Source of the DNA: Clytia hemisphaerica
Lineage: Eukaryota
Assembly (NCBI RefSeq): GCF_902728285.1
Contig: NW_027104315.1
Coordinates: 354,032 to 405,664 of the forward strand
Reading direction: 5' to 3'
Length of the DNA: 51,633 nucleotides
Shown here: positions 4,029-41,813 of the stretch, in pieces
Position numbering within the stretch: the stretch's first letter is position 1
Layout: every line of letters begins with the position of its first letter
Made by a program: the position numbers and the translations under genes
The notes under the pieces: generated by a model
Told to the model about the DNA's origin: nothing
What the model saw: only the letters and a program-made list of their open reading frames with translations
Database searches by the model: none

Positions 4029-4194
4029 GAGGAGGCGGAGATATAACACGGTATAATGGATTTGACTATTACTTCAGTTCTGTGACTAAGACATGGCAAA
4101 ACGCAGAAATAAATTGCATTGATCGAGGCGGCCATCTTACAAGTGTCCATTCAGGAGCAGAAAATAATTTTTTGAATCAACAAATTAGTACTAG
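4029..4194 (+). CDS. Exon, C-type lectin domain N-terminal half (GGGGDITRYNGFDYYFSSVTKTWQNAEINCIDRGGHLTSVHSGAENNFLNQQIS); enters in phase 1, so upstream signal-peptide exon(s) were not found
   Basis: Acceptor ttgttttag|GAGG, donor AG|gttcgt; CTLD motifs (C..GG.L.S+HS..E..F); phase chains to next exon. Confidence 0.7.
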
Positions 4195-4963
4195 GTTCGT
4201 ATATAATACCATTTAAGGACTCTGGCCATAGTCGGAAAATTGATTTTAGTATTTGAACATAAAAGTTATGTTTTAGGTTCTTTAACACTTTTAACAAAGA
4301 ATTGCCTTTATAAATTGCTTTTTAATCAAATCCCTTAAGAGTAACTAAGAAATTTTTGAATCAACAAATTGTTGTTAGGTTTGTACAGGTTGCTTATTTA
4401 TGGCGATGATTCGTGAGAAATTTGTTTAGTAGGAGCTCTTTTGGTGCATTGATGAAGCCCTAGCTGTTAGCACTTTAAATTCGAGAGTTCCGTCAAATTC
4501 GAACAAAGTTTCTTTTTTATCATTCTGATATAACTCATGAAAGCATAATCCGTATAAAAAACCCGGTCTGGAAGCCTTTTGTTTCTTTCCATTGTTTCTT
4601 AATTGAACTTGCGTTGAGAAATTAGTTTGTTTTGCTCACTTTTTGATCATGTGATTAAATCTTAAACCAATCCCAAGGGGAATACTTGGTAACGTGATCA
4701 AATACTGAGCAAATCGATTTTTATCTTTTGATATTAACAAAGAAAAAAACTAACAAAAAGTTAAAACAATAAGCTTCTCCAGACCAGGGTTTTTTATACC
4801 GGCTATGATGAAGGTCACGCTTGTTACGATTTTCCAGTAAAAACAAAAGCAGGCAAGTTGCTCTGGAGACGAGATTGCATCCCCATTTAAACGATTAGGG
4901 TTTGTCAAGCTTGATAACGTCGTTAAAAGCCTTCTCTTTTTTGATTCCCCTAAATTGAAATAG

Positions 4964-5184
4964 GTATGATTCTCAAGTAATGCCCTGGTACGGTGGATTT
5001 AGAAGACCTGATTTGAATTTTGCATGGTCTGATGGAACAGCCTTTAGTTGGACAAAATGGGGAGAACGTCAACCAGATAATTATGGAGGAATGGAGAATT
5101 GTCTTCACCGTTGGAGATATGATGGTGTCTGGAATGATTCACCTTGTAATCCTGCATATTATTATGTCTGTAAACTTGATATAG
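4964..5184 (+). CDS. Exon, C-type lectin domain C-terminal half (…FAWSDGTAFSWTKWGERQPDNYGGMENCLHRWRYDGVWNDSPCNPAYYYVCKLD)
   Basis: CTLD signature W.W.DG…W..G.P.N…E.C…W.D..C…YVCK; acceptor aaatag|G, donor ATAG|gtacgc; phase-consistent with exons 1 and 3. Confidence 0.75.
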
Positions 5185-5336
5185 GTACGCCTATTTACTT
5201 TACCAAAAATATGACTAAAATCACTTTGAGAAGGGCTGTATTAAACTATTTCATAGAAAGGATTTGTTTTTTGAGTTCATGATATTTAACAACGTCACTT
5301 TAGTAATCAACCAACGGTCGTTTTCTTCCCTTGCAG

Positions 5337-5396
5337 CAACTACTACAACAAGCACCACCACAACAACAACACCACCAACGCCTCATATCTTTAAAA
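5337..5396 (+). CDS. Exon, Thr/Pro-rich mucin-like linker (ATTTTSTTTTTTPPTPHIFK)
   Basis: Acceptor ccttgcag|CA; donor (weak gttatc) chosen because it preserves phase into the D8C exon. Confidence 0.5.
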
Positions 5397-5669
5397 GTTA
5401 TCAGAAAGAAAAGTTTAGTTGGAAGTAGACTCTGGATTAGTACAAGCATGGCTATGATTTTTTGATGCGGAATGATTTTCTAAAGAAATGCCCTATGTCC
5501 CCCCCCCTTCCGAGCTGCCACCTTTTTTGGGGGGCGGGCAAAAAAGTGCCTCTGATTACTAATTTCAGTGCCCCTTTGCTCCCTTTACATCTTAGAGTCA
5601 GCAGCCTTTAGGTAAAAAGAAAAAAATACCTAAAAAAACTCGTGTTCAATTCGCCCGCGACAGATTTCA

Positions 5670-5957
5670 GGTTTCAAGTTTTAGCCCCAATTTTAGTCGA
5701 CCCTCCCATTGAAAACTTAAATCCTTCTCAAGCAAGAGAAACTGAAACCACTTTATTTCCCATCCAAAACGCGCATAGAACGCGCCGTAATCAAAACGAC
5801 GAATTGTATGTTTTGGAAGACGACATTTTTCGAAATCTAGCGATAGATTTTAGTTTCAATCCGGCATTTATGTAAACACTACGCGTGGACATTCTGGCTG
5901 GGAAATAAGTGGTTTCATTTCCCATCCCGGAGTCTCGTCTCTAGCCTTCCGGGCTTA
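5670..5957. mobile_element. MITE, same family as 75-352 (5' end degraded)
   Basis: Aligns to 75-352 over ~270 bp. Confidence 0.7.
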
Positions 5958-7213
5958 AAACTCAATGAACCCACCTTGCTACTGCATCATGTGACTTATT
6001 TATTTACAAAGGTTATAATATCATTGGTTATATCCAAATTATTCACTGATATGACTTTTTCACATATAATTTTTGAACCCGCTAACCATCAATATTTGGT
6101 AAAAAGTTTAAAAGTGCAGTGTGCACTTGAAAATGCTTATTTGAGGTATAGTCTAGTACCTTATGTCCCAAGGGTCTCAAAAAGATAAAATTCGTCAATA
6201 TTATCAAAGGGAAAGTGGGTTGGCTGACACAACACAATCACAATAAGATAAAGTGCCTGATTATTTAGAAATTTAGTCAAGCTATGATATTGACAATCGT
6301 TCGTGTGAAGCACGTAACAAAAATGGAAATACACATTTTTTTTATGAAAACACCTAAATCAGTCCCAGCACCGAGTTTAAATTACCTTTAGACAAGTATT
6401 GTTCCTCTACAACCAAAGAAAATACAGTTGACGCTCTCTAATTTGACGTTCTTCTATTCGATAGGCTCCCTTATTCGATGATCGTTAAAGTCCCCGTCAA
6501 CGATAAGCTCCCTTATTTGATTCAAATCCAATTCCTTGAAGATCGAATTAGAGAGCGCCAACTATACTTAGAAATGAGGGAAGTTCGTCTTATATCTTCA
6601 TCCGACTTTTCATTTTTGGTCAAAATATAGATTAGGAGAGTAAAAGCTGTACAGTGAAATTATTAGTGCCCCATTTCCAGAAGATCTCTTCTAACCGATA
6701 TTCCTCAGCGAGTTAATCATGAATGTTTTTAGACCTGCGGGGGAGTCCTAAAGCTAAGCGACCTACTGTAGGAGTGACCCTCTTTTCAGGCTTCCCAAAT
6801 TGCACTTTATAGGTTTAAATGAGCATTTATTAAAACACTGGGAACCCTTCCTACTCATCAAAAAATTGGTTGAAATATTCTCCCAGTCGAAAATTATACT
6901 CTGATTTTTGTCCCCGTTGAAGATAATGATATAAGCCCCACTGCAAAATAATGTGCTATTTTTTCCATCCCTACTGAATTTTCTGTCTGGAAAACTATGT
7001 AATTCAAATCCCCAGCAATAAAAAACATGGGAATAACAATCCTCATCGAGTTTTGGTCCGTTATTTTTATCCCCACTGGCTGATAAAATCATACTGGGTC
7101 TGTGAGAAGAGGGTGTATATTAAAATCTAGCCACAATTTAACAGCAGGACTATCATGAATTTCAACTTCACCATTCAACACTTTTTACTTTATATTTTTG
7201 TTATTATCATTAG

Positions 7214-7396
7214 ACACATGCCAACCTCATTTTCTCGATGCAAGTTCCACCATCTGGCAAAGGAGTACCGGATTTTCCATAGAACCTGAAGCAAGTGGTG
7301 TAAGATGCGATCGACAAATTAAGACGGGATGGTATCGGTTCAAAAGCCCTGCTGGTTCAATTATGCCCGAACAATGTCCTAATATCAATTCTTGCG
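7214..7396 (+). CDS. Exon, D8C domain N-terminal half (…RCDRQIKTGWYRFKSPAGSIMPEQCPNINSCG)
   Basis: Matches uromodulin D8C core 'CDTDLRGWYRFVG..GARMAETCVPVLRC'; acceptor cattag|AC, donor G|gtaagg. Confidence 0.8.
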
Positions 7397-7688: not shown

Positions 7689-8430
7689 CAGGGATATGTT
7701 ATAGCGGAGCTGGATGAAGGACGAGAATTCCTTAGCGGATTGCTTCTTTGTCTTTTCTATTGTAAACTGTTGATAATAGAAATCCATCTCTGTCCCCTTG
7801 AGTGTTCTGTTTTTTTAAGAAAAATGAAGCAGACAAAGTATTCATGCAGTACGTTTGCACATATTTTGCTATGATGTTCCCACTTTTCATTAAAATAATA
7901 TTTGTAGAAGATACCCCAAAAGCTTCCTTGTAAATGAAATCTATTTTTATCAGCGTGTGTTATGAATTTGAGAAGATTCATGATTTCTCTTTAAAAATTT
8001 CGGATGTAAATATTTTGAAAATATGTTTCAATTTTTTGAAATTTTTTCCATAATAAGACCTACCGACTTGCTATCTGAAAATATCAGTTAGAAAGTGAGG
8101 CACCCCGCGGTGTAGCGCGGTATTTCAAATGAAAAAGTACTATTTATAATCTTAGAGAAGAAACTTCTTATAACTTTACCAATGAAAACAATGTTTTTCA
8201 TTTTTTTAAATTGTCATTCACCAATGTTTTACAGACCCTCTTGATAACTAAAAGTTTTTAATCGTGAACGATAAATGCAGAAGCAGAATCATTGGCTAAG
8301 AGGAAATCCAAATTTCACGAGTTTGTAATTAAAAAAGTTAAATTTCATATCAAATTTTAATGTTAGGGACAGAGATAGAGCAAGGCTTTTTTAAATGTGC
8401 GTTATCCAGCTCCGCTATAAGATATCCCTG
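7689..8430. mobile_element. ~740-bp non-autonomous DNA transposon with ~28-bp TIRs (CAGGGATATGTTATAGCGGAGCTGGATG), copy A
   Basis: Terminal inverted repeats; near-identical copy at 11152-11887; short flanking direct repeats (CTAAAT). Confidence 0.85.
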
Positions 8431-10298: not shown

Positions 10299-10508
10299 GC
10301 ACTACGTTACCAATTTGGTTAAATGGTTCACATCCAACGGAGGTTAATGTCTCAACGTCGGTCCCGGTGTGTGTTGTATATCCTGGGAATTGCTGTGCAC
10401 ATAAATACAACATTGATATCAAACGATGTCAAGATGAGGTACAAGGAGAGGATTATTTTGTTTACAATCTACCTGCTACTCCAGGATGTCCAATGTCTTA
10501 TTGCATCG
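10299..10508 (+). CDS. Exon, D8C domain C-terminal half (TTLPIWLNGSHPTEVNVSTSVPVCVVYPGNCCAHKYNIDIKRCQDEVQGEDYFVYNLPATPGCPMSYCIG)
   Basis: Matches uromodulin 'PMWLNGTHP…CC…YYVYNLTAPPECHLAYC'; the split glycine codon G|GC joins exons 4 and 5 exactly; donor G|gtaagc. Confidence 0.85.
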
Positions 10509-10517
10509 GTAAGCTTT

Positions 10518-10615
10518 CCCAGCTGGCACACAACATTGTTTCAACGTTTATTTAACGTTCACAACGTCCATATAAAGTTAGATGAACGTTAAAACAACGT
10601 TGTGTGCCAGCTGGG
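10518..10615. mobile_element. ~100-bp palindromic AACGTT-rich MITE ('CCCAGCTGGCACACAACGTTG…CAACGTTGTGTGCCAGCTGGG'), copy 1, starting ~10 bp after exon-5 donor
   Basis: Near-perfect internal palindrome; same consensus recurs at 25555-25652, 27758-27855, 31491-31587, 36062-36156, 37206-37292, 39175-39266, 40815-40911; degenerate or partial copies at ~10195-10290, ~26740-26930, 27443-27500. Confidence 0.85.
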
Positions 10616-10624
10616 TTTTACATC

Positions 10625-11117: not shown

Positions 11118-11151
11118 GGTCACAAACTTTTTTACTTTACACAGGGATATG

Positions 11152-11887
11152 TTATAGCGGAGCTGGATGAAGGACGAGAATTCCTTAGCGGATTGCTTCT
11201 TTGTCTTTTCTATTGTAAACTGTTGATAATAGAAATCCATCTCTGTCCCCTTGAGTGTTCTGTTTTTTTAAGAAAAATGAAGCAGACAAAGTATTCATGC
11301 AGTACGTTTGCACATATTTTGCTATGATGTTCCCACTTTTCATCAAAATAATATTTGTAGAAGATACCCCAAAAGCTTCCTTGTAAATGAAATCTATTTT
11401 TATCAGCGTGTGTTATGAATTTGAGAAGATTTCATGATTTCTCTTTAAAAATTTCGGATGTAAATATTTTGACAAATATTGTTTCAATTGACTTGAAATT
11501 TTTTCCATAATCAGACATACCGACTTGCTATCTGAAAATATCAGTTAGAAAGTGAGGCACCCCGCGGTGTAGCGCGGTATTTCAAATGAAAAAGTACTAT
11601 TTATAATCTTAGAGAAGAAACTTCTTATAACTTTACCAATGAAAACAATGTTTTTCATTTTTTTAAATTGTCATTCACCAATGTTTTACAGACCCTCTTG
11701 ATAATTAAAAGTTTTTAATCGTGAACGATAAATGCAGAAGCAGAATCATTGGCTAAGAGGAAATCCAAATTTCACGAGTTTGTAATTAAAAAAGTTAAAT
11801 TTCATATCAAATTTTAATGTTAGCGACAGAGATAGAGCAAGGCTTTTTTAAATGTGCGTTATCCAGCTCCGCTATAAGATATCCCTG
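11152..11887. mobile_element. ~740-bp TIR element, copy B (near-identical to 7689-8430)
   Basis: Near-identity over the full length implies recent transposition. Confidence 0.85.
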
Positions 11888-12391: not shown

Positions 12392-12454
12392 GAAATGAAA
12401 CACGTTGTCCTGACGGTGAAAGATCTCCAAATGGTTTCTCCCCTGGTTGCACAA
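12392..12454 (+). CDS. Small Cys-containing exon (GNETRCPDGERSPNGFSPGCT)
   Basis: Acceptor ttttttttag, perfect donor GTAAGT; phase-consistent on both sides. Confidence 0.6.
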
Positions 12455-12492
12455 GTAAGTTTTTTTCTGATATTCTTTACATGTTAATTTCA

Positions 12493-13413: not shown

Positions 13414-13655
13414 ATGAGTTTCCCAAATTGAAAGGAAAACCTGAAGTAACTGTTGGTAGTCATGGCAACCGAATACGTTTCACTTGTGATTTCGAACCAG
13501 AACAAATTAAGAACAATGCAAAATATAAAGTGTCATGGTACACACGCACATCTGATGGTAATGCAGAATTAGTGAAGACAGAGACGTTACATGGAAATCA
13601 AACAAAATCTTTTTTACAAAACACTGATGGGCAAAAATTCTGCTTACAGAAAAAT
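13414..13655 (+). CDS. Exon, Ig-like domain (…VTVGSHGNRIRFTCDFEPEQIKNNAKYKVSWYTRTSDGNAELV…GQKFCLQKN)
   Basis: Ig-type C…W…C spacing (FTCDF / VSWY / KFCL); acceptor tttttttag|AT, donor AAT|gtaagt; phase-consistent. Confidence 0.6.
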
Positions 13656-14395: not shown

Positions 14396-14482
14396 TTCTT
14401 TTGTGAGGTTAGTTCTGTATTCCCGGACTCCGAAGATATTTCTGATACCAAAAGAAGCGATGATTTCTTTGCTGGAATAAAG
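14396..14482 (+). CDS. Exon (FFCEVSSVFPDSEDISDTKRSDDFFAGIK)
   Basis: Acceptor tatttttcag, donor AAG|gtaaga; 29 codons, phase 0 in and out. Confidence 0.55.
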
Positions 14483-15706: not shown

Positions 15707-16628
15707 TTGAAGCTTTAGAAATTAGTTGAAACGAGATTCATTGTTTCTGACATCAGTGTAAGAAAATATTTCGACAAAAAGAGCCCTGTAAACTTGGCAA
15801 CCCTTCGTCAAATAATAAGATTTTTCGATCAATGTTTTTTTAAAGTGAACTCTATTGCTTGATACTTTCCTCCAAAATACTCCAGCCACTTAATGGCTAC
15901 AAATTGAGTCTGAAAGTGCGTGTGCTTATAAAGAACTTTTCATTTTTTGGCTTGAGAAAATATCTTTTCAAAACAAAATTGAACGGATAACGAAATGGAA
16001 CGTAAACTTGTGTCGTGGACGAAGTCTATATATTAATACGCTTAAACGTGTGTGTTTACAACGTTCTGTAAAAAGTGTTCGAAATTATAACAAAGCTCTA
16101 CAAAGCCTCTTCTTCACGGCGTTGAACCATCGTCTCTTTGCACCCCACGCAGTTTTCCTACCACTAGACTAACTTTGAGACGCCAGTATACTATTTTCTT
16201 TACAGCAACATTGGAGCTGGATGGGTTAAAATCAACCTTCTTCACAAATATATTTTTTGCTTTAGAAGATTCCTAATTCAGATGATCTTTAAAACTTTCT
16301 GTTTACTATAGCGGCTCCCTATCACTTTCAAAACTTTTCAAAGTCTTACAAAGTCACTCTCGAATGTCCAGCCACGATGGCTAGCCACGATGGCTAAAAA
16401 GATCGAAAATATAATTCTTCTAAGCCAATTACTTAATTGTGATTAAAAATTGCAATGCAATGTTATCTTTTATCTATTTTTTTCATTAAATGAAAATCGT
16501 ATCACTATTTTGGCAGTTATATTTCTTCCTACAGAGATTTTTTATATGTATAGTGATTCGCTGGATTGGGACACGCAGCGTGCGATGCTGCGCATACGGC
16601 TAGTTTTGTTTAATTTTCGAATATTAAC

Positions 16629-16892
16629 CCTTAGGAGGCGAAACACGTATATATACGTTTTGAAAAGGTCATTTTACCGATACACAGTCTTTTGGTCATA
16701 ACTGACCACTTCAGATTCAGACAAAAAAAATCTGCTATTTTTCGTAGCTGAGAGAAAGAGCTTTCTAGTGATACCAAAGTTGATACCTTAATCGTTTGTC
16801 CTGGTCGAGAAATTGCCTTTGAAAAAATAAATTTCCAGAAAAACATGATGAAATTTTTGGCCTTTTTCAAAAAAGTTAGCGGCTTTGAAAGG
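16629..16892. mobile_element. ~265-bp TTAA-flanked element (TTAA|CCCTTAGGAGG…GAAAGG|TTAA), piggyBac-like MITE, copy 1
   Basis: TTAA on both flanks, CCC…GG termini; second copy 17015-17282 is ~97% identical and 120 bp downstream. Confidence 0.6.
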
Positions 16893-17014
16893 TTAATAAA
16901 AATTTTTTAAATCTTTAAAACTGGCCCAAACTGTCCAAAATGACTATTGGTACTAAGAGAAAGTAGATAAAGGCATTTTAAATGAAAAATGAAAAATCAT
17001 TGAGTCCATGTTAA

Positions 17015-17282
17015 CCCTTAGGAGGCGAAACACGTATATATACGTTTTGAAAAGGTCATTTTACCGATACACAGTCTTTTGGTCATAACTCCTGACCACG
17101 TCAGATTCAGACAAAAAAAATCTCCTATTTTTCGTAGCTGAGAGAAAGAGCTTTCCAATGATACCAAAGTTAATACCTTAATCGTTTGTCCTGGTCGAGA
17201 AATTGCCTTTGAAAAAATAAATTTCCAGAAGAAAATGATGAAATTTTTGGCCTTTTTCAAAAAAGTTAGCGGCTTTGAAAGG
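17015..17282. mobile_element. ~265-bp TTAA-flanked piggyBac-like MITE, copy 2
   Basis: As above. Confidence 0.6.
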
Positions 17283-17723
17283 TTAAGAGGCTACAATGTT
17301 CAATACTGATAATTAAAACGTTCTGAGCAAACTTGAGTTCTACAAAAAAGGCGAGCTTAGAATTCCTTTTGATACATTTTGTAAAAGAAATCAATAGACT
17401 TTAACGACCAATTACCGACACATTCAACTCCTGTTTTTCTTTATACCTCCATGTGTTAATGTGCTAAATTTTTATTGATATCAATCTATATGATGATCAA
17501 TCTATACACTAATACTTCGAACAAACGCCCTCTTCTTTTAAACTCCCCCTCAAATAAAATTCTCCTTCAAATAAACGCCTCCCTTCTAAAATTGGTGTTT
17601 ATTTGAAACAATTAAACACCCTTCCCCCCTCGAATAAACGCACTATCTAAAATCCAAAAAAATTAATAAACGCCCGCGCCGCGTTTATTCCAAGTATACG
17701 GTATACATTTTTTTCCATTTTAG

Positions 17724-17887
17724 ATCAGCCCTACAACGATAGATTTGGCTGAGAATGATGCACCAAAAGAGTTAAAGTTCGAGACCACTGTACCAATCAC
17801 CTGCGAGCCATTATTTCCTGATTGTGCGGTCGACCTTGAAGTTGCACAAACGCAGAATAATGGCGTTCTGAGTTTTTGTAAAATAAG
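17724..17887 (+). CDS. Exon (ISPTTIDLAENDAPKELKFETTVPITCEPLFPDCAVDLEVAQTQNNGVLSFCKIR)
   Basis: Acceptor ccattttag|ATC; donor AG|gttact chosen so that phase fits exon 10; an alternative donor at 17878 is possible. Confidence 0.5.
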
Positions 17888-18854: not shown

Positions 18855-19014
18855 TTTTAAGAAGGGTCCAGCTGGTCAAGTAAAAACAATGGAAGTTGTT
18901 GCCAAAAGAGATTTTATTGACGACGGTGATAAATCAATGAAAATCAAATTTCATATTCCTTTAACTCTATTTGTACCCGATTGGAAATGCCATGCAGAGT
19001 TTCCAGATGTGACG
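18855..19014 (+). CDS. Exon (SFKKGPAGQVKTMEVVAKRDFIDDGDKSMKIKFHIPLTLFVPDWKCHAEFPDVT)
   Basis: Acceptor cttcatttcag, donor ACG|gtaaga; open frame. Confidence 0.55.
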
Positions 19015-19663: not shown

Positions 19664-19801
19664 GTACACACTAAAGATGTTACAACAGCCAATTGCTATT
19701 CCAATGGTGATCCACACATTACAACATTTGATAACAGAAGATTCGACCATTACAGAGTTGGTGATTATGTTTATACCAAATCTGGTGCACGTCTATTTGA
19801 G
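19664..19801 (+). CDS. Exon, start of von Willebrand factor type D domain (VHTKDVTTANCYSNGDPHITTFDNRRFDHYRVGDYVYTKSGARLFE)
   Basis: Canonical VWD opening C.S.GDPH..TFD...F.F.G.C.Y; acceptor ctatag|GT, donor GAG|gtaggc; 46 codons. Confidence 0.8.
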
Positions 19802-21629: not shown

Positions 21630-21815
21630 GTGCACGTACGAACTTTTGTTTGCGCTTCGGTGTCCTGTAATTGTGGAGTAGCAGCCAGAGAAGGTGATGA
21701 CGTCATGGTGGTGGACATGTGCCGAGACAATGTACCACGTGCTAGGTTCGCGAGTACTGTTGAACCACAACCTGGAACTAGAATTAATCGTAGTCCTGAT
21801 GGAAAAGTTTTTGAG
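21630..21815 (+). CDS. Exon, VWD domain continued (VHVRTFVCASVSCNCGVAAREGDDVMVVDMCRDNVPRARFASTVEPQPGTRINRSPDGKVFEV)
   Basis: Acceptor ttttcaacgcag|GTG, donor GTA-adjacent GAG|gtatga; 62 codons, phase 0. Confidence 0.7.
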
Positions 21816-23918: not shown

Positions 23919-24112
23919 GTTAACACCTGGATCAAGTTTATTTTATCATCGTGGTGGACCACAAAAATGTTTGGCTGAAAGATTCAAAACATACTGTTTC
24001 TGCAGTGAAAACGCTCAGAACAACCAAGTTATCAATTGTACTACTAATGCTATTGTTGATCGTCCAAAATATATTGTCGGAAATAACCAATATCAGGAGC
24101 TCAATTTTCCAG
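23919..24112 (+). CDS. Exon, VWD C-terminal Cys-rich region (KLTPGSSLFYHRGGPQKCLAERFKTYCFCSENAQNNQVINCTTNAIVDRPKYIVGNNQYQELNFP)
   Basis: Acceptor gttaatag|GT, donor CCAG|gtaagt; phase 2 in, 1 out, consistent with neighbours. Confidence 0.65.
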
Positions 24113-24575: not shown

Positions 24576-25328
24576 AAACTTGGTCGAGTTAAGGAGAAGA
24601 CATTCGAAATACAAATGACTCTACTGTACTAGATTTCAAAATAATCCTTGAAATAATCATTGGCATATCGCAACGAGACAAAAACTTCTCCCGCAGAAGG
24701 CTTCTGTTCTCCTGTGCAGTGACTTTCAAAACAAAGCACACTTTTTTATATGATCATACCAAATAACTTGCTCCATTTAGTTTTAAACCCGGTTTTAGGG
24801 ATTTGTCGGCATGATTCTAATTTTTATCAGCGATCCAAAAAATATCTGCAATCTGATTAGTTAAAAAGAATACAACATATCTTTTTTTTTACATGTACAA
24901 AATATAAATTGACAAAAAGATGTTCTTACATTTTAGCGGTAGAAGCAATCTAACGTCACTTTGCTACAAAAATGCCCTGCGCTTTTTTCCGACACAAAAA
25001 GTGCATTTTTTCGGTCACCGATAAACCAGTTATCAGACATTTTTTGCTTGTACAATATGGAAATATATTTCTCATATTGTACTCGTAGCTGTCCGATAAC
25101 TATTTCATATCGAAACTTCATGTTCTTTCCAACGGTAACTACAAAGGATCAAAAAGACTTCCGAAACAGAGACTGAGTTAGGAAGTGACCTGACAGAGCC
25201 TTTAGAACTCTAATTATTTAAAACAATCAAACATTTCTATACATTTTATTTTTCAGGAGCTGAACACTGTGGTAAAAGGAGGCGAAGACGTCGGGATGTT
25301 GAAACACAGAAAACCTTAATCTTGCCAG

Positions 25329-25540
25329 ATGATGGCGAAGATGCGGTATATTTTTACGATCCTATCCAGCCTAATAAAACGCTACCTTCTTTCCCAACAC
25401 CTAATGGTATCACTGAAGTGCAGGCTATCTTTAATTGTGACAAAGCATTGCGAGAATCAGAGAGTGGAAAAGTATGTTTGGAACTCGTTCCCGACCTTGA
25501 TATTGATGGCATCATAGAGAGCTGTGTTGAAGATACAAAG
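25329..25540 (+). CDS. Exon (DDGEDAVYFYDPIQPNKTLPSFPTPNGITEVQAIFNCDKALRESESGKVCLELVPDLDIDGIIESCVEDTK)
   Basis: Acceptor cttgccag|AT; donor AAG|gttagg lies ~14 bp before a MITE; phase-consistent. The upstream 'tttttcag GAGCTG…' candidate was rejected because of an in-frame stop. Confidence 0.6.
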
Positions 25541-25554: not shown

Positions 25555-25652
25555 CCCAGCTGGCGCACAGCGTTGTTTCAATGTTAATCTAACGTTCACA
25601 ACGTCCATTTAACGTTAGATTAACGTTTAAACAACGTTGTGTGCCAGCTGGG
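25555..25652. mobile_element. AACGTT-rich palindromic MITE copy, ~14 bp after exon-15 donor
   Basis: Sequence identity to the other copies. Confidence 0.85.
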
Positions 25653-27170
25653 TTTCTACTGAATGATAATGTACAGATATCACATATACAAATGCAGTTG
25701 ACACTTTCTAATTCGTTTTTTAGGGTAACTTTTCATCGAATAAGTACTGTGAAAAGTTAAGGTCGAAATCATATATCGACGCTGTGCCGACCAATCCAGA
25801 TTATATTCAGCGCGCAATCAACGCAGAGAAAAGTAACCATAACTCTTATGGACATTAAATGGACGGCTTTAAGACCTATGGACGTCCTGGAAACATACAT
25901 TAGACGACCAAAAGACGTTTGTGCCCATCGGGATCGATGATTTCTTTGATATTCATCATCTTCTTGTTCGCCATCATCCTTTGACGTTTTTGTAAGGTCA
26001 TTGGTTGAAAAATGAAGCAATTCCACTGGTAGAAATTGACGTAACGGACGAAAAAAGCAGAACTTCCATCAATTCTTTTTTTGTTCGCGCGAAACTTTTT
26101 TATGACGTAATCTTTTGTTCAGGCAAAAAAAGGTTAAGAAAAAAACTGTCGCCCATTTCGCATGAACGTGGAGTCCGGCCTTAAGAAGTACCCTGAGTAT
26201 TAGAGGGTTAATTTTTCAAAAAATATAATAACCTCTGAAGACAAATAATAGAAACTTCATCGCGCATGTGTCAATCTAATCACTGTACAAAAAATCAAAG
26301 ATGAAGAGCAAATATTACCATATTAATGTCTAGCAGACTGTATCAGTATGCAGTTTACTATTTACGAATTCCCCAGAAACCTCCAAGTGTAATTGAAATG
26401 AGTTTATTTCGAAAGAAATCTTCTACACGATTCCCAATTGTATAACAGTCATTACTAAACTATTAGTTATGGAAATGTCACTTTAATTGAATCGAAATAA
26501 TAGACATACTTTATGTTATGATTCTCTATCACTGACTCTTTTTACAAAGCATTGATGACTTTTTGTAAATTGTGTTTTCAACGACGGGAATAAAAATATC
26601 AACTTTGAACCTCATCCAAGATCTTGGATGGTCGTCATGGTTACTTTTGTCTTCGTTGATTGCGCGCTGAATAGAATCTCGATTCGTCGGCACATCGTCA
26701 ATATATGATTTTGACCTGTGCTATTCACGGTACTTAAGAAGTTGTTTCGACGTTAGTTATGAACATTAGATGAACGTTGCAGAAACATTGTGTACCAGCT
26801 AGACAAAAGACATGAACTTATGTCTTTTGTTACCCAGCTAGCGCATGACAGGGAAAAAAACGTTGCTTCAACGTTCATCTAATGTTAGATGGACGTTATG
26901 AATGTTTGATAGACGTTGATATTAATTAACAATCTTAATTACACGCTTTTTGTATAAGAACAAACCAAAAACATAAGGTTTCGATGGCCAAAATCTTAAG
27001 AGCAAGTGAAGAACATTTTAAGGCTTTGTGGATTCTAAAACACCTGATTTCATAGGAAACTGGACCAAAATACTCACAAAATGGGGGAAATTAAGAACGC
27101 TGTTAAGAAAATATTTAGGCTAAAAACTCAAAAAATTAAGAACATCCAAATGCTTCTATAATCTTTATAG

Positions 27171-27414
27171 ATCTTGGATGATATAGAAGTTGCAACATCA
27201 TCAGCTGTTGGTGTCATGAAAGATGCATGTGAGGAAGTCACCCTTCGAAATATCACATTATGGAAAACAGATGATACTACTGGTCAACTTCAACCACCAA
27301 AAGCTGTTGCAGAAATCTTATGTCCAAACGAATGTAGTGGTAATGGTTATTGTGCTAATGCAACATGTGTTTGTGATGAAGGATATTTGTCTGCTGATTG
27401 TTCCATCCACGAAG
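27171..27414 (+). CDS. Exon, linker plus EGF-like domain (…[31 protein letters not shown])
   Basis: EGF pattern C.3C..G.C.4C.C..GY.4C; acceptor ctttatag|ATC, donor GAAG|gtgaaa. Confidence 0.7.
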
Positions 27415-27442: not shown

Positions 27443-27855
27443 ATTTTCACAGGTCCATATAAAATTAGATAAACGTTAAAAAACGTCGTGTGCCAGCAGG
27501 GAAGAGGGACTTCTGACCATAGATTTATAAAGTCAAAAAGGCTAGATGTTCTACTTTAAGCTCTTCCAAACAAACAAAAAAGAAAGTGAATATCGCAAAA
27601 AATATTGCTGCTATTGTTTTCAAAAGACCCGCGAAGCTTCTTATTGGTCAAGCACTGAAATTCTATTGTGATGCCACGCGACCTCGGCACACTTTTCAGC
27701 CAAAACATGACATCTACCTAGAACTTTGGACTTGAATCTATGGTCAGAAGTCCCTCTTCCCTGCTGGCACACGACGTTTTTTCAACGTTTATCTAACTTT
27801 ATATTGATCTGTGAACATTAGATAAACGTTGAAACAACATTGCGCGCCAGTTGGG
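27443..27855. mobile_element. Composite: half MITE (27443-27500), a second TIR element with 27-bp TIRs GGGAAGAGGGACTTCTGACCATAGATT (27500-27762), then a full AACGTT MITE (27758-27855)
   Basis: Nested inverted repeats seen directly in the sequence. Confidence 0.7.
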
Positions 27856-28331: not shown

Positions 28332-28468
28332 ATGATCCACCAGTGCTGGTAAAAGTGGCTTTCAACGGATTGTGTGACATTCGTCAAAAGGACTGCGTTC
28401 GAACACGTGTCATTGGTAGAAACTTCATCAATTCTGAAAGTTTAGCTTGTCAAACAAAGGCTCTCAAG
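28332..28468 (+). CDS. Exon (DDPPVLVKVAFNGLCDIRQKDCVRTRVIGRNFINSESLACQTKALK)
   Basis: Acceptor ttttatag|AT, donor AAG|gtatgt; phase 1 in, 0 out. Confidence 0.6.
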
Positions 28469-30355: not shown

Positions 30356-30790
30356 ACTACTTGGTTATCTTATCACACCCCCTTGTCACAGACAGGATTT
30401 CTTCATCCAGTTGGTATAAGAATAACGAAATGAAACTCGATGGGGATTGATTTTCTCATATTGTTTTAGCTGGGGATGTCAATTCTTTTGTTTTCAAGTC
30501 AGAAAATTCAATGAGAATGGGGAAAATATCATAATATTTTGCAGTGAGGATTGGTTTATTTGATTATTTTCTGTGGGGACGAAAGTTGGAGTATTATTTT
30601 CCATCGGGAACGATATTTTGGCCAATTTTTCCAGTGGGAAGGGGTCCCAGTGGGTTTATGAGAAGGAGGTGCCTTATCTTGTTATGATGATTCTTCTTGG
30701 TTGTTATAGTTCACTACTGACCATTCTATCGATGAAGAATTCAACGGAGAAGCAACAATTCAAAGCAGTGAATTATTAAGTTTCGCCGAG

Positions 30791-30982
30791 TTGAGTTGCG
30801 ATCTACCTGATGTTCCAGTCGATATTGTTTTTTCGTCAACGCAAAAAGGAATTCCAGTTGGGGGTTTTGATATCCGATTGTCAAACAATGGGGAAAATTT
30901 CTCGAATGAGAGTTCACAATTTGTGGTGTATGATTCCAAATGTTTACAATGTAATGCCACTACTAAAGATTGTCAGTGGAAG
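30791..30982 (+). CDS. Exon, IPT/TIG-like segment (LSCDLPDVPVDIVFSSTQKGIPVGGFDIRLSNNGENFSNESSQFVVYDSKCLQCNATTKDCQWK)
   Basis: Open frame and donor AAG|gtatga; the acceptor (cgccgag|TTG) is weak and chosen for phase; exons may be missing between 28468 and here. Confidence 0.45.
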
Positions 30983-31490: not shown

Positions 31491-31587
31491 CCCAGCTGAC
31501 CCGCAACGTTGTTTCAACATTAATCTAATGTTCACAACGTCCATATAGCATTAGATGAACGTTGAAACAACGTCGTGTGCCAGCTGG
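31491..31587. mobile_element. AACGTT-rich palindromic MITE copy, ~50 bp upstream of exon-19 acceptor
   Basis: Sequence identity. Confidence 0.85.
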
Positions 31588-31639
31588 GTATATGGTGTAA
31601 AATTAGAAATGAGTTAACTTCATCATCATCGAATTTTAG

Positions 31640-31745
31640 GAAGACTCCTGCCGAGTGAACAATTATTGTTTTGGCAAAGGAGATGCACATCCATTGGATT
31701 GGTGCAAAGTCTGTAGTGGAGAAAATGCTTTTGAACCAAGATATG
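31640..31745 (+). CDS. Exon, PSI-like Cys-rich segment (EDSCRVNNYCFGKGDAHPLDWCKVCSGENAFEPRY)
   Basis: Acceptor gaattttag|GAAG, donor TATG|gtaaga; C..NNC…WC..C spacing resembles plexin/semaphorin PSI. Confidence 0.55.
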
Positions 31746-34242: not shown

Positions 34243-34449
34243 ACAACTTGGCACCTGTGTTTCGACCAACTGAACCTATCAAAGTTTTTAAAGACCAAGA
34301 AATGAGCTTCGTTATCCCCGTATTTGATCCTGAACAGAAGAGGATGAAATATGAGTTGATAGAACCACCATCACCACCACTGGGTATGGAGATCTCCAAT
34401 GGTGGAGTACTGACATGGACACCCAAGGAAGAAAACAAAACGTTCACAG
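34243..34449 (+). CDS. Exon, dystroglycan-type cadherin-like (CADG/He_PIG-like) domain (DNLAPVFRPTEPIKVFKDQEMSFVIPVFDPEQKRMKYELIEPPSPPLGMEISNGGVLTWTPKEENKTFTG)
   Basis: Motifs 'F.IP..FDPE…Y.L…P.G+.I.NG.L.W.P'; acceptor ctatttcag|AC, donor CAG|gtaacc; the phase-1 G from exon 19 completes a GAC codon exactly. Confidence 0.65.
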
Positions 34450-34775: not shown

Positions 34776-34957
34776 TATGGATCAAAGTTACTGACATTTG
34801 TGGCAACAGTTCGTATTCTACATATGATTTTGAGGTTGTTAATTGTCCTTGTCAAGCTTTCAATGGTGCAGAATGCCAAAGAGGTGATAATGGAACTATT
34901 AGCTGTGTTTGCCTGCTGGATGTACCGGAAAAAAGTCGAAAAAAGCTTGCACTATAG
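34776..34957 (+). CDS. Exon: end of cadherin-like domain plus Cys-rich EGF-like segment carrying RGD (VWIKVTDICGNSSYSTYDFEVVNCPCQAFNGAECQRGDNGTISCVCLLD…); stop at 34955-57 if unspliced, or donor at 34922 (GAT|gtaccg)
   Basis: Acceptor tttttttcccag|TA; phase-consistent with exon 20; the 3' boundary is unresolved. Confidence 0.5.
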
Positions 34958-36061
34958 TTTGCTCTTAATAACTCGAAAGTAAAAGTTATGTTTTGCTTAG
35001 TTGAATGGACCTATCAGAGTTTTCTTGATTTTTTCTAAAACAGCGATGCATTGTGGGATTGTTTCAGGAGTATTACAATAAATCTCTTAGAATTCCTCGA
35101 GGAATTCATTATACCCCGGAAACAATCCCACAATGCATTACCGTTAAAGAAAATCAAAATACCCGAACTGATTTCTTTTTTCACTGAAGATTAAGCTTTT
35201 GAGTATGAAAAACTGAAACGTTTTTTAATCAAACTAGTGGAACTGTTAAATTTTTATATTCACGGCACCTGTCTGCAAGGGTAACCCTGCTTACAAAGAC
35301 TTACAGTCAACTCTCTCTAATTCGAACCTCTATTATTCGAATTTTTCTGTAATTCGAACTAAAATTGGTCTCTAAAGCTGTAAAGTGGTTTAAATTACTC
35401 TCTATTATTAGAATCTTTCTCTAATTCGATCAAAGTTTTTGATCCCTTGAAGATCGATTTAGAGAGAATCAACTGTACTTATAAAGTCAAAAATTCTTCA
35501 ACTATTAGCTTTGTGCGAAAAACTTCTCTTTACACACCACCGTGCCACAGATCCGGTGGACCCCCAGCCTCACATGTAAATAATACCCTAGGATTTAAAC
35601 CCCACTGGATAATTAAAGTATGATTTATCCCCATTCGAAATTGGGCGGCAAAAACTACACTCCAAAACCAAAACCACCCCCGTTTTTCTTTTTGAGCTAG
35701 AAACAATGATTTTCTGTCCCCTTTCGGACTTTCATCCCCACAGAGAGAAAAAAATCCTTTAGCAAAAATTGCCTTGACTTTGATTTTTTTTTATTTACTA
35801 AGGTCACCCACTCAACTAAGCTACTTTGAAATAATTAATAAAGAATAAAATATGATCTACAAATTTAAAATACCCGTAAAGAAACGTAATGGACAAGTAA
35901 GTAGCTTGACAAAATGATATGTAATCTTGATATCTCAATCTCTTTACTTTTCCAGTTGTTCCATTGGCGAAGAGTGTAAACAAAAAAGTAAGGAAAAACT
36001 GTCTTTTTGATTTTCTAAAAGTCCATTTTGGCTTAAAGTTTAGTTAAAATAATTTGGTAGT

Positions 36062-36156
36062 CCAGTTGGCAACGACGTTGTTTCAACGTCTATCTAACGT
36101 TATATAGACGTTATGAACATTAGATAAACGTTGAAACAACGTTGTGTGTCAGCTGG
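36062..36156. mobile_element. AACGTT-rich palindromic MITE copy
   Basis: Sequence identity. Confidence 0.8.
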
Positions 36157-36418: not shown

Positions 36419-37125
36419 GGGCTCTGACCATAGTCCAAAAATAGATTTTGGTATTTGAACATAAAAGTTATATTTCAGGTTCCTTAACACTTTTAACAAA
36501 GAATTGCCTTTATAAATTGCTTTTTAATCGAATCCCTTAAGAGTAATTAAGAATTTAATTGCAAAAATGACGTTATGAACTTTAAAAAGATGTTAATAAT
36601 ATGTTGCATCACCCTCTTTTACAAAAAGTGCTTAGTTTTAATGGGTAAATAACTTTTTTGTTTCAAAATTTCTTTACACTGTCCGCAAAGAATTGAACTA
36701 TTTCAAATTTTGCGGAAAATTTTTCTAAAAGAGTGTCAAAAGTTATGACTGTTTTTTTAAGCAAAATCCAGATGAAAAATTATGAAAAACCACTAATTTG
36801 AAGATTTCGAGACAAAGAGCATTACCAAAAATTTTCCGCAAAAATTTTTATTGTTCGGTAAAAGATACACCATCTACTGCGAAATTTCTTTCAAAATGTT
36901 TTTTCTTCGCCGAAACTAAGCTCTTCAAAGTTGAAATACTCTTCCTCGTAAAAGTCTTCATTTTCTTCTTCATCAAATTTTCTCAATGCAATTTTTAAAT
37001 TTTTAGATTCAGGAATAGTTTGTCTAACAGAAAATGTATAACATGCCATAGTTTTGTTAGTTACGTCAGTCAGAAAAGACATTTTAAACACGGCAATTAT
37101 GAAAAATTCACTATGGTCAGAGCCC
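36419..37125. mobile_element. 707-bp TTAA-flanked element with 15-bp TIRs GGGCTCTGACCATAG
   Basis: TTAA TSD at 36415-18 and 37126-29; partial 5' copy at 4217-~4350, only ~22 bp after the exon-1 donor. Confidence 0.75.
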
Positions 37126-37205
37126 TTAAGTTGTGCAGATCACCTGTTTCTTATGTTGGTTGGCTTAAATGTAATTTTGACCACCAGAATTCGCCCAAAA
37201 ATACC

Positions 37206-37292
37206 CCCAGCTGACACACAACGTTGTTTCAACGTTTTTCTAACATTCACAACGTCCATATAACGTTAAATGAACGTTGTGTGCCAGCTGGG
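37206..37292. mobile_element. AACGTT-rich palindromic MITE copy
   Basis: Sequence identity. Confidence 0.8.
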
Positions 37293-38772: not shown

Positions 38773-39162
38773 CATCTCCAATGAAACTCAACTGCTATCA
38801 AAACAAAATGGAAATTGGTTTAGAATTCGATCACCTATCACGTCACTCCTTACCTTATATCGTCAAATTTCATGGTGATAATAACTGCCCAACATTAAAT
38901 GCATCTTCAGCATCTTCAATATACGATGGACGTCTATGGATGAATGCAAATTACAGTGAATGTGGTATCAAAGCTTTTGAGAGCGGAAACAAACTAGTGT
39001 TCAAACAAATCGTTGAAGTTGTGTACGGAAAACAAATGAAATCTTTAGATGTTTATCGACATTTTATTGATACTTATAACGCTTCTTGTTCGATTGATAG
39101 AAATGTTACACATAAATTAAACATCGATGTTAAAGAACAGGAGACTCTCGACGATGAAACAG
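38773..39162 (+). CDS. Exon, ZP-N domain (…LNCYQNKMEIGLEFDHL…GDNNCPTLNASSASSIYDGRLWMNANYSECGIKAFESGNKLVFKQIVEVVYGKQMKSLDVYRHFIDTYNASCSID…)
   Basis: Matches uromodulin ZP-N 'ECGANDMKVSLGKCQL…DSRCSGF…W…GPCGT…Y.N.L…I.R…I.F.CSY'; acceptor ttcaatag|CA, donor ACAG|gtaggc; enters in phase 1, so an upstream exon is required. Confidence 0.8.
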
Positions 39163-39174
39163 GTAGGCACTTTA

Positions 39175-39266
39175 CCTGTAGCACACAACGTTGTTTTAAC
39201 GTCCATCTAATGTTTACAACGTCCATATAACGTTAGATGAATACAACAACGTCGGGCGCCATCCGG
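39175..39266. mobile_element. AACGTT-rich MITE copy (degenerate TIRs), 13 bp after the ZP-N exon donor
   Basis: Sequence identity; flanked by a duplicated 'GAAACAGGTAGG(C/T)ACTTTAC' segment. Confidence 0.75.
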
Positions 39267-40034
39267 GTTTCTATACTTGTGATGCATATTTATTTTTAAT
39301 GTATGTTTTTATGAGGCCCTCCAAGCGGTTTTCTTGATGTCGTACTAGAGACTTTCTTCTGGCGAGGAAACAGGTAGGTACTTTACAGGGGGGTTTCATG
39401 GTTGACGGAGGAGTGGAATCGGCCCTTTTTCGAACGGAGTGGCGGAATTTGACGAAAATTTTGACGGAATTTCGGAAATTGAATCTGCTGACGGAGATGG
39501 AAAATTAGACAATTTTAGTGTGGAAAAACGGAATTTAGCAAATGTTTTTGCAGTTTTTCGGAATTATGGCTAAAGATATTTGAATCACGCAGAATTTTTT
39601 ACAAAGAAAGCTTGAACTTCAAAGGAATCTTTGATGGTGGAGTTCTTATTTTCACCCTGAAAATTGTAAAAAATCACCAAAAGTCGTCCCTTTCCAGATA
39701 CACATCTTGAAAATTAGTAAAATTTGGGACCCTACCAGATATCTTCAGAGCCTAAAAAAGGGATCCTGACTAGCAACATATCCCCCCGTACCCAATTATG
39801 CTTACCTTTTCTGAAGGTGAATGGTAAAATACGATGGCTTTTTTACGGAAAAACTTAATGAAGAACTAACTCGGCAAAAAGTACTCTAGGGGTTCACGAC
39901 TTGGCGAAAATAAAGTTGATTCAATAATACAGTGGGACTTCCAATTTGCGGACACCACGGGGAAAAGGGTGGTTAGTGTCTGCTATAGTGTCCACTAATA
40001 AGTACATATTTCAAACTTTTTTTTTATTCAACAG

Positions 40035-40233
40035 AGGAGAACGCCGATTTCAAATTCAAATTTAGTGCTTTCAAAGACGATAAAACAGCGATCAGTGGTT
40101 TGGTCTTTCTTGGAGATTTAATCCATTTCGAATTGGAGTTACTTTCCAACTCTAAAGTTGTGAAAACGTCTCCTCAAGATTGTTTTGCTACGCGTTTGGA
40201 TGGAACAGGACGCTACGATCTTATTAAAGATAG
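40035..40233 (+). CDS. Exon, ZP-C domain start (EENADFKFKFSAFKDDKTAISGLVFLGDLIHFELELLSNSKVVKTSPQDCFATRLDGTGRYDLIKD)
   Basis: Acceptor attcaacag|AG, donor ATAG|gtaaac; resembles uromodulin 'F.V.MALFQ…L..[22 protein letters not shown]'. Confidence 0.8.
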
Positions 40234-40814
40234 GTAAACATATATTTATTGTATAGTCAAAAACGTCGCAAAAACCTTTCTTTTGGGATGAGATTTAAGT
40301 AATAAAATTTCAAATTAATTTCTCAAAAAATTGTGTGAAGAAAATCTCCATGAAGAAAAACAACAACAATAGGTAGAAAAGGTAGCTAAGAAATGCTATG
40401 TTCAGTTTCAAAACCTTCGCGAGTGTTTTGCCTTAATTTCTTTTTTAGCGGAAACCTTTACCAACTTTAATAACCTTAAAATCATTTAGACGATGCTATA
40501 GTCTGTTAAAGGGATAGTTTATCGGCGGTAAAATGTATATGTGTGGAGTTTTCAACCGTAATGTCAGTATACGGAAAAATTGGCGATAGAGTTTTGAAAA
40601 AATGTCAAGCTCTACCGGCTGTAAACTATTTTCGCCGCAAAAAAATATCTGTTTGCTTTGGCTTTGGTTTTATTTCTTAGTTAGTGATTTGAAATCATTC
40701 AATACACCTTTTCTAACGTAGCCGCCAATTGCCACGTGAGCATTGTTTTGTCCGTTTTACCACCCTAAAACCGTTCCAGTCTTTTTTTCGCACCTATAAG
40801 ACAATAGAAAAAAA

Positions 40815-40911
40815 CCAGCTGGCACACAACGTTGTTTAAACGTTAATCTAACGTTCACAACGTCCATTTAACGTTAGATTAACGTTAAAACAACGTTGTA
40901 TGCCAGCTGGG
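40815..40911. mobile_element. AACGTT-rich palindromic MITE copy, ~125 bp upstream of the ZP-C exon acceptor
   Basis: Sequence identity. Confidence 0.85.
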
Positions 40912-41035
40912 AAGTGTAAAAAAAAGGATTAGATCGAGTTTAGGGTCGTAAATCAAATAATAAAGTGGCAAGTGTCTGACCGCGCGACTACGGTCGAAGA
41001 GGTGTATTGGCCAAATATTCTTATCATTTTTTTAG

Positions 41036-41328
41036 ATGTGTAGGTGATGATGAAACACTCGCGATCACATCGTCCAATCAACAAACACACATGTTCTCGT
41101 GGGAAATGGAAGCTTTCAGATATTTTGGAAATTCTGACGGTATTGTAATCACCTGTCGAGTTTTGGTTTGTCGAAATAATCCTTTTGATCAACTGACAGA
41201 TGAATGTAAGAGATGTGGACAAACTACCGTCAGACGAAAACGAAGAAATGATGAAGATGAAGAGGAGAAAGATGTTTTGAGCGAAACTTCGCTGAAGAGT
41301 GATCCCATTTTCCTTGTTGAAAGACCAG
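41036..41328 (+). CDS. Exon, ZP-C end plus consensus furin cleavage site and external hydrophobic patch (RCVGDDETLAITSSNQQTHMFSWEMEAFRYFGNSDGIVITCRVLVCRNNPFDQLTDECKRCGQTTVRRKRRNDEDEEEKDVLSETSLKSDPIFLVERP)
   Basis: 'IKD|RC' spans the splice exactly as in uromodulin 'IQDRCP'; RRKRR followed by a hydrophobic stretch; acceptor ttttttag|AT, donor CAG|gtatag (an alternative 6 bp later keeps the same phase). Confidence 0.85.
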
Positions 41329-41649
41329 GTATAGGTATGTCGCTCTCTCTCTCATTATTTCTCTTCTTACATGTTGTAAATTGTCGATTTGAGTGATACT
41401 TCATTTCCTGTATTAAGTTTCCACTGACTTTTCTGAGATTTTTCCGCTAAATAATGTTTTCAAGGCAGTTGTTGCACTCATAATGATTTATGAAAAGGCC
41501 CAATGTCATTATTAAATCTGTCATAATTTAAATACGTACTATGTACTTATCGTGCCTTTTACTGATGCATATTTCGTGACTGTTCCCCAGCTCCCGGACT
41601 ATAACTTTAGTCAACTCTGATGTTATTGTTTTATTTATTCTACACAAAG

Positions 41650-41813
41650 GCCTTGCCAAAGTATCTGGCGATGAAGCAGGTCTCGATCACACTGAAAAGA
41701 TGGCAATCATTGTCGTTTGTGGTGTTGTTGCTTTGGTTCTTTGTGTTGCCATCGTCAAAAAGTTTTTCTTCAAACCTCAAAGTGGAATGCCAGAAAAACC
41801 TGTTGTTGGATAA
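41650..41813 (+). CDS. Terminal exon: transmembrane helix plus short cytoplasmic tail (GLAKVSGDEAGLDHTEKMAIIVVCGVVALVLCVAIVKKFFFKPQSGMPEKPVVG*)
   Basis: Acceptor cacaaag|GC completes a GGC codon from the previous exon; 19-aa hydrophobic segment then KK stop-transfer; TAA at 41811-13. The ORF-track frame over this region (MLLFYLF…) is the wrong frame. Confidence 0.8.

Follow-up and report, generated by a model that had tools for sequence, protein, structure and literature searches.

A single gene of Clytia hemisphaerica, on the + strand of a 51,633-nucleotide stretch of DNA (the window), probably encodes both the VWDE-like protein and the zona pellucida (ZP) protein which public annotation assigns to two genes. 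It would comprise positions 4029-42684 of the window together with a signal-peptide exon further upstream, and we put the probability of this single-gene reading at about 0.8. Judged by its sequence, the gene is a member of the VWDE family, with a lectin at its head and a ZP module as its tail, and not a decorated uromodulin.

Exons were chosen from the stop-free segments of the + strand by splice consensus and phase, in a window which is AT-rich (GC about 35%). The chain begins at 4029, directly after an AG at 4027-4028, and consists of 21 exons before the ZP part, including one of 63 nt at 12392-12454, followed by four exons in the ZP part itself; all the junctions are phase-consistent in the spliced translation. 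When a threonine-rich exon at 5337-5396 is left out, the spliced window is identical to residues 21-1250 of RefSeq XP_066930013.1 (isoform X2). This exact match bears out the coordinates, the 21 exons and the phase continuity proposed in an earlier, sequence-only reading of the same DNA. The first exon starts in phase 1 and therefore requires a signal-peptide exon before it, which that reading had proposed to look for upstream of 4029. The signal peptide, MRLILWFAFIYFISAQTLVE, makes up the first 20 residues and is known from the RefSeq protein; its coding sequence was looked for across the window and was not found, so the gene begins upstream, outside the window. The four ZP exons are backed by a transcript-derived protein (P0018) and by three mRNA contigs (L001, L002 and L003), and they stand as first read, apart from the last acceptor, which is at 41649 and not at 41610. 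Their stop codon ends at 41813, and contig L001 could be aligned through a 3' untranslated region (41814-42684) to position 42684. Overlooked at that stage were a 32-nt exon at 35956-35987, present in the RefSeq tail and in the mRNA contigs, and a one-base frameshift at 34912-34913.

In the RefSeq annotation the two genes are a VWDE-like one (XP_066930013/14) and one for an "uncharacterized protein" of 338 residues (XP_066930018.1), the latter protein beginning at a methionine inside the ZP part and lacking a signal peptide. The C-terminus of the VWDE-like isoforms X2 and X3 reads ...CVCLLDVPEK, then IVPLAKSVNKK, then HLQ*, and these three segments correspond to exon 20, the 32-nt exon and ZP exon 1, respectively. 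HLQ* comes from an off-frame reading of the 12 bases with which ZP exon 1 opens, CAT CTC CAA TGA, the TGA being at 38782-38784. The RefSeq tail thus reads into ZP exon 1, which means that the annotators' own mRNA joins the VWDE exons to the ZP exons. For the donor at 34935 the RefSeq frame gives phase 1, and the frame restored by reading CCC at 34912 gives phase 2. In the RefSeq frame the 32-nt exon gives IVPLAKSVNKK; in the restored frame it gives (N)CSIGEECKQK, containing the sixth cysteine of the last EGF domain and a linker, and it passes phase 1 to ZP exon 1, to which it is spliced directly.

The same junctions are present in L001, L002 and L003, which are intron-free contigs from public metatranscriptome and read-archive assemblies of wild relatives, L001 and L002 probably coming from one library. 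Their identity to the window is about 97%, and 94-99% in each exon, and their exon boundaries are exactly as modelled. They cover exon 20, the 32-nt exon, ZP exons 1 to 4 and the 3' untranslated region to 42684, and L003 begins as early as exon 16. L003 is open over 645 codons in a single frame, which leads from exon 16 via ...CQRSDDGTISCVCPAGCTGKNCSIGEECKQKMVSPMKLNCYQNKMEIG... as far as the ZP stop. The encoded protein shows 97.1% identity to that of the window gene and 92.8% identity to that of a tandem copy described below, and as it is closer to the former, L003 is taken to be an allele or orthologue of the window locus. The RefSeq tail, the junctions in the three contigs and the continuous frame of L003 come down on the side of the single gene which the sequence-only reading had offered as one of two alternatives.

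Purifying selection acts on both halves. Between the window and L003 the ratio of non-synonymous to synonymous substitution rates (dN/dS) is 0.106 in the VWDE part (16 synonymous and 7 non-synonymous changes, binomial P 5e-7) and 0.124 in the ZP part (12 synonymous and 6 non-synonymous, binomial P 3e-5).

The other alternative, two independent adjacent genes for a secreted VWDE-like protein and a small ZP membrane protein, with the joint transcripts as read-through by-products, appears very improbable. The separate RefSeq models XP_066930013/14 and XP_066930018 would suit it, as would the broken reading frame between the halves in the assembly, but the RefSeq stop lies three exon junctions before the end of the transcript and has the appearance of a premature one. 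Stand-alone ZP paralogues of the same subfamily do have signal peptides of their own; the stand-alone ZP models of the present locus (P0018 and P0026), however, begin at internal methionines and have none. ZP exon 1 starts at a phase-1 acceptor and is preceded in all observed mRNAs by the 32-nt exon, which is not a first exon, the EGF domain is split over the junction, and L003 spans that junction in one open reading frame (ORF). A private signal-peptide exon for the ZP part was searched for between 34958 and 38772, and a single weak candidate was obtained, at 36575-36644, in the intron before the ZP exons. That ORF, MNFKKMLIICCITLFYKKCLVLM, is signal-peptide-like and has a phase-1 GT donor, which speaks for two genes, but it has lysines within its hydrophobic core and no transcript support, and it probably arose by chance.

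Several points weigh against the single-gene reading. The frame is broken in the reference sequence, and a separate ZP protein, XP_066930018.1, stands in RefSeq. The continuous ORF is seen in environmental close relatives and not in the reference strain, and L003 starts no earlier than exon 16, the N-terminal half being linked to it via the RefSeq models and not in one molecule. There are ZP paralogues (P0029, P0037 and L004) which stand alone and have a signal peptide of their own. Four conceivable isoforms, either fused by exon skipping or containing the Thr linker, were looked up by exact match in a collection of 15 billion proteins, and none of them was present. The VWDE-like proteins of the scyphozoan Sanderia have no ZP module and finish with either the EGF domain or a membrane helix, ie the combination is lineage-restricted. 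The structure model of the ZP part is only moderate, with a mean predicted local distance difference test (pLDDT) score of 59.9, and cleavage, polymerisation and lectin activity are proposed by analogy with better known proteins. A homologue search with a query spanning the junction found the known ZP cluster only; this has little weight, as the word-indexed method also missed proteins of 100% identity.

A comparison of the window with L003 over 1942 spliced bases shows 50 substitutions and three indels, of 3, 6 and 1 nt. The 1-nt indel is the sole difference which breaks the frame: the window has CC at 34912-34913, and L001, L002 and L003 all have CCC. Insertion of one C into the window sequence gives a single ORF of 1597 residues, in which the last EGF domain reads CVCPAGCTGKNC, matching CNCHPGCTGERC in Sanderia. 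It is because the missing C breaks the frame between the halves that RefSeq lists two genes. As written, the product of the reference allele is predicted to terminate in ZP exon 1, giving a truncated, soluble VWDE-like protein. Skipping of the 32-nt exon would restore the ZP frame (-1 -32 = -33 nt) and leave an open frame of 1586 residues.

A real one-base deletion in the sequenced animal, ie a young loss-of-function or hypomorphic allele making the truncated soluble protein, is the explanation slightly favoured here, at a little below even odds; under it the ZP part would be untranslated, or rescued solely by skipping of the 32-nt exon. The RefSeq proteins match the window exactly, so the deletion sits in the deposited assembly, and the 93%-identical tandem copy could provide redundancy. 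The donor of the Thr-rich exon also looks degraded in the window copy, and the arithmetic of exon skipping leaves the 1586-residue frame open, but the exon-skipped product has no record in the 15-billion-protein collection by exact look-up. With no other lesion in about 4.8 kb of coding sequence and a dN/dS of about 0.1, the deletion would have to be very recent. The other explanation, a distinct possibility which we rate at rather longer odds, is that the C was lost through an error in the consensus or the assembly, or through the wrong collapse of a heterozygous indel, and that the reference animal makes the full-length protein. It is in keeping with this that nothing else breaks the frame relative to the three transcript contigs, that the restored frame is conserved out to scyphozoans, and that the two halves are under equal purifying selection; the truncated models in the adjoining tandem copy also suggest a region which is hard to assemble. 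The site, however, is a run of two or three C's and not a long homopolymer, and the UniProt and RefSeq models both rest on the identical sequence.

The ZP module is encoded by four exons. ZP exon 1 (38773-39162), which has no signal peptide, encodes ZP-N with four cysteines; exon 2 (40035-40233) encodes the interdomain linker and the start of ZP-C; and exon 3 (41036-41334) completes ZP-C and also encodes RRKRR (41232-41246), a site of the furin type, and the external hydrophobic patch SDPIFLVE (41298-41321). Exon 4 (41650-41813), present in P0018, P0026 and the mRNA contigs, contains a predicted 19-residue hydrophobic membrane helix (41700-41756), a short cytoplasmic tail and the stop. The furin site, hydrophobic patch and membrane anchor named in the sequence-only reading are thus present, in that order. 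When the ZP module was scanned alone, ZP-C (PF00100) scored 48.3 bits against a Pfam cut-off of 24.6; PF00100 was unlisted when the full 1597-residue conceptual protein was scanned. ZP-N (PF23344) scored 20.0 bits, under its cut-off of 24.7, with positions 1-99 of 101 aligned and the four cysteines present, and the cysteines of the ZP part number 4 + 6 = 10. In the AlphaFold model of the ZP part, pLDDT is about 75 over ZP-N, and its 19 best matches in the PDB are all ZP structures (ZPD, ZP3, uromodulin, endoglin, ZP2 and betaglycan), with Foldseek aligning 255-320 columns to whole ZP modules at a best E of about 5e-9. The IFLV of the patch is modelled as a beta-strand. After the membrane helix the protein ends in an 18-residue charged tail, KKFFFKPQSGMPEKPVVG, and it is not predicted to carry a glycosylphosphatidylinositol (GPI) anchor.

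At the opposite end of the protein is a C-type lectin domain, encoded by the exon at 4029-4194, which follows an acceptor site, and by a second exon at 4964-5184. It matches Lectin_C (PF00059) at 56.5 bits (cut-off 22.6) over profile positions 2-106 of 107, ie it has the C-type lectin fold. The domain is alternatively spliced, both exons being found in RefSeq X2 and the domain being out of X3, where the first exon is skipped. The sugar site in the second exon reads WGERQPDNYGGMENC...VWNDSPC and contains both the QPD and the WND Ca2+/sugar motifs. QPD is the galactose-type motif of C-type lectins and EPN the mannose-type one. At this site (within 4964-5184) the present gene has QPD, whereas the 93%-identical tandem copy XP_066930000.1 (P0023) has EPN, and to judge from these motifs the two may bind different sugars. 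The threonine-rich linker which the sequence-only reading placed next is an optional exon. It has a good acceptor, but its donor, AAAGTTATC, is weak and it is skipped in RefSeq X2 and X3; it is kept in isoform X1 of the tandem copy (P0023), and in the window gene it is possibly defunct.

The D8C/D10C domain is encoded at 7214-7396 and 10299-10508, the second exon also being matched by the RefSeq protein, and scores 41.8 bits with D8C_UMOD (PF23283, cut-off 27). A profile built from jellyfish and mammalian homologues matched the D10C structures of UMOD (E 2e-17) and GP2 (E 5e-17) in the PDB, as well as the VWD structures of FCGBP and MUC2. A small cysteine-containing exon, GNETRCPDGERSPNGFSPGCT, at 12392-12454, lies between D10C and the next domain and is found in the RefSeq protein. 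That domain is the VWDE-type Ig (exons 13414-13655 and 14396-14482), which matches Ig_VWDE (PF25776) at 95.2 bits (cut-off 28.1) over positions 2-105 of 105. The stretch from Ig to VWD (exons 17724-17887 and 18855-19014) has no Pfam match and is conserved in jellyfish homologues. The VWD domain itself (exons 19664-19801, 21630-21815 and 22397-22620) matches PF00094 at 36.4 bits (cut-off 22.9) over its full length, 1-156 of 156. Its GDPH motif (19706-19717) is invariant in the aligned jellyfish and mammalian VWDE sequences; motifs of this type self-cleave in some VWD proteins.

After VWD there is a cysteine-rich region (exons 23919-24112 and 25257-25540). It includes a polybasic GKRRRRRRD (25271-25297) which is conserved in the Clytia paralogues and in Sanderia, and which may be a second convertase site, separating the lectin/D10C/VWD half from the half bearing the ZP module. 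An EGF-like domain of the teneurin/reelin type follows at 27171-27414. Its matches to EGF_Teneurin (21.5 bits) and EGF_2 (19.6-20 bits, cut-off 22.1) are both below the cut-offs, and reelin and teneurin EGF structures were matched in the PDB. The next region (exons 28332-28468, 30710-30982 and 31640-31745), beta-rich and cysteine-rich, gave no Pfam match at E<=10; it aligns with mammalian VWDE, and all of it is contained in L003. The exons at 34243-34449 and 34776-34934 encode a dystroglycan-type cadherin-like domain (He_PIG, 23.2 bits, just under the cut-off of 24) and the first five cysteines of the last EGF domain. In the Pfam check which had been proposed for the earlier domain list, the curated cut-offs are exceeded by Lectin_C, D8C, Ig_VWDE, VWD and ZP-C. 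That list was largely right, except for an IPT/PSI-like domain, for which there was neither Pfam nor PDB-sequence support; an RGD reported in an EGF domain is RSD in the 97%-identical relative and is thus not conserved.

The gene is placed in the VWDE family because D8C directly precedes the VWDE-specific Ig domain, which is followed by VWD, and because of its alignment to mammalian VWDE. With phmmer, Clytia residues 383-736 and 803-1230 align to mammalian VWDE, the latter segment matching residues 554-974 of Echinops VWDE at 145.5 bits. The D10C domain occurs in four mammalian proteins, namely GP2, UMOD, OIT3 and VWDE (PMC8930769). The secreted VWDE has in common with the Clytia gene D10C/D8C, the VWDE-specific Ig, a VWD with GDPH and then EGF regions, and NCBI names the Clytia gene VWDE-like. 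VWDE differs in its long C-terminal array of EGF domains; the Clytia protein has two EGF-like domains and then a ZP module, a furin site and a membrane anchor, and it has gained an optional C-type lectin domain at the N-terminus. The unusual features are limited to these two ends, ie an alternatively spliced lectin and a ZP module.

In the sequence-only reading the locus was a uromodulin-like gene to which a non-standard set of adhesion domains had been fused, and this has to be abandoned, D8C/D10C being the N-terminal domain of a VWDE-type protein. There is nevertheless a likeness to UMOD, GP2 and OIT3 (LZP). They share D10C, and an EGF domain right before a ZP module with 10 cysteines, a polybasic site, a patch and a membrane anchor; the expected action of the Clytia protein, filaments formed on cleavage and bearing projecting arms, would also be similar. 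Uromodulin is defined by the layout D10C, EGF IV, ZP and GPI anchor. In Clytia D10C ends at about residue 280 and ZP-N starts at about residue 1250, so that some 950 residues (Ig, VWD, EGF and cadherin-like) separate the two, and the anchor is a membrane helix and not GPI; the combination of D8C and then ZP, earlier taken as the mark of the uromodulin/GP2 type, does not make it one. There are further differences from UMOD, GP2 and OIT3 in that N-terminal calcium-binding EGF domains are absent from the Clytia protein and its arm would bear a lectin, and not merely a glycan decoy. The nearest relatives of the Clytia ZP are hydrozoan proteins and not UMOD. Alpha-tectorin consists of NIDO, VWC and four VWD repeats followed by a ZP module. 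It too combines VWD and ZP in one extracellular-matrix polypeptide; it is not known to have D10C, the VWDE-type Ig or a C-type lectin domain, and it has several VWD-C8-TIL repeats compared to the one VWD in Clytia.

A search of 1.84 billion representative proteins with a ZP profile gave 441 relatives. The nearest are small stand-alone proteins with their own signal peptide (P0037, Clytia XP_066921022.1, ie P0029, and the hydrozoan transcript L004). They are 36-40% identical to the Clytia ZP part and have the same layout of ZP, an RRKRR-type site, a PIF/Y patch and a membrane helix, but they differ in standing alone, in the signal peptide and in having nothing but a short Cys loop ahead of ZP-N. 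Elsewhere in the subfamily the ZP module is found behind mucin/TSP1/VWA or NIDO/EGF heads. Among the best 150 of the 441 relatives there were two with D8C and ZP and none with the VWDE array. The Sanderia homologues have the whole array up to the last EGF domain in common with Clytia. An ancestral combination of VWDE and ZP was considered and rejected, in view of the Sanderia proteins without ZP and the lack of a VWDE array in those best 150 ZP relatives. The distribution makes domain shuffling in the hydrozoan lineage the more likely origin of the fusion.

The tandem copy, 93% identical, shows the same pairing of VWDE-like and ZP models (XP_066930000-2), judged by consecutive RefSeq accessions on the same scaffold. 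It lies outside the window on this 459,709-bp scaffold, and its VWDE models stop in exon 17 and its ZP model starts in the middle of ZP-N, which suggests that the sequence there has a gap or was misassembled, or that a second haplotype has been misplaced and is not a true tandem copy. A third Clytia ZP paralogue (P0019) starts with an EGF-like tail. There is also a third VWDE-like paralogue, XP_066931714.1, with A0A7M6DM46 as its putative ZP partner.

The intact product would be made as a type I membrane precursor, some 1600 residues (1597) in length. Its N-terminal half is expected to consist of the signal peptide, the optional C-type lectin domain, D10C, the VWDE-type Ig, VWD with GDPH, the Cys-rich/polybasic region and an EGF domain. 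The C-terminal half would continue with the beta-rich/Cys-rich region, the cadherin-like domain, the second EGF domain, ZP-N and ZP-C, RRKRR, the patch and the membrane helix. Cleavage-triggered polymerisation of ZP precursors is established for ZP3 and uromodulin. By analogy with these, a furin-type protease would cut at RRKRR and the hydrophobic patch would leave, and the freed ZP modules would then assemble head to tail into extracellular filaments. An arm of about 1230 residues, containing lectin, D10C and VWD, would project sideways from the filaments, and would act as a galactose-type lectin when the lectin exon pair is included. The earlier idea of a lectin-bearing protein which forms ZP filaments fits the sequence, with polymerisation again proposed by analogy. 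Our best guess, at about even odds, is a role in an epithelial surface coat or a mucus-like layer, binding microbial or matrix glycans. Vertebrate VWDE has a reported role in the wound response (PMC8930769, PMC9117669), and a similar role for the Clytia protein is an alternative lead.

Repeats are common in the introns of the gene. A palindromic, MITE-like (miniature inverted-repeat transposable element) interspersed repeat of about 90 bp, for which both strands are matched at each site, has at least nine intron copies, several of them just past exon donors (10526-10618, 25555-25658, 26874-26917, 27759-27842, 31504-31589, 36073-36148, 37215-37274, 39181-39270 and 40811-40903). A dispersed repeat of about 240 bp is present in the 3' untranslated region at 42000-42244 and, on the minus strand, in introns at 6873-7109 and 30394-30622; it is found also in the untranslated region of related mRNA contigs. 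Two 262-bp copies in different introns (7689-7950 and 11142-11403) are 99.6% identical, and a near-tandem duplication within one intron (16621-16896 and 17008-17286) is 96% identical. Downstream, at about 42980-50530 on the + strand, there is a gene with at least three Fasciclin (FAS1) domains (61.5, 31.7 and 24.3 bits) and a signal-peptide-like start, MKYIVLLVFVLIGQSQA.

It is conceivable, though we think it unlikely, that the 32-nt exon acts as a switch: its inclusion would give the anchored, polymerising VWDE-ZP protein, and its skipping would shift the frame and give a soluble VWDE-like one, with the outcomes reversed in the allele lacking one base. If this were true, there would be a polymerising form of VWDE, in a family with a vertebrate member required for the regeneration of appendages, and the presence of D10C, VWD and ZP in one polypeptide would hint at a common origin of VWDE and the uromodulin group.

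The public annotation is corrected by these results, in that the RefSeq "VWDE-like" and "uncharacterized" entries are probably one gene, and the single base responsible for their separation is located. The gene combines known kinds of parts and is not a categorically new system, and no long-standing question depends on the result. It is a further case of the shuffling of ZP modules in hydrozoans, where the subfamily is found alone or behind mucin/TSP1/VWA, NIDO/EGF and now VWDE-type heads. Clytia is a genetic model, and the predictions can be tested there. To our knowledge no function has been assigned to the VWDE-like proteins of cnidarians. The present gene indicates that a ZP polymerisation module and a lectin head can both be part of a VWDE-type protein, and it suggests that cnidarian VWDE-like proteins can serve as filament-borne components of a surface coat.

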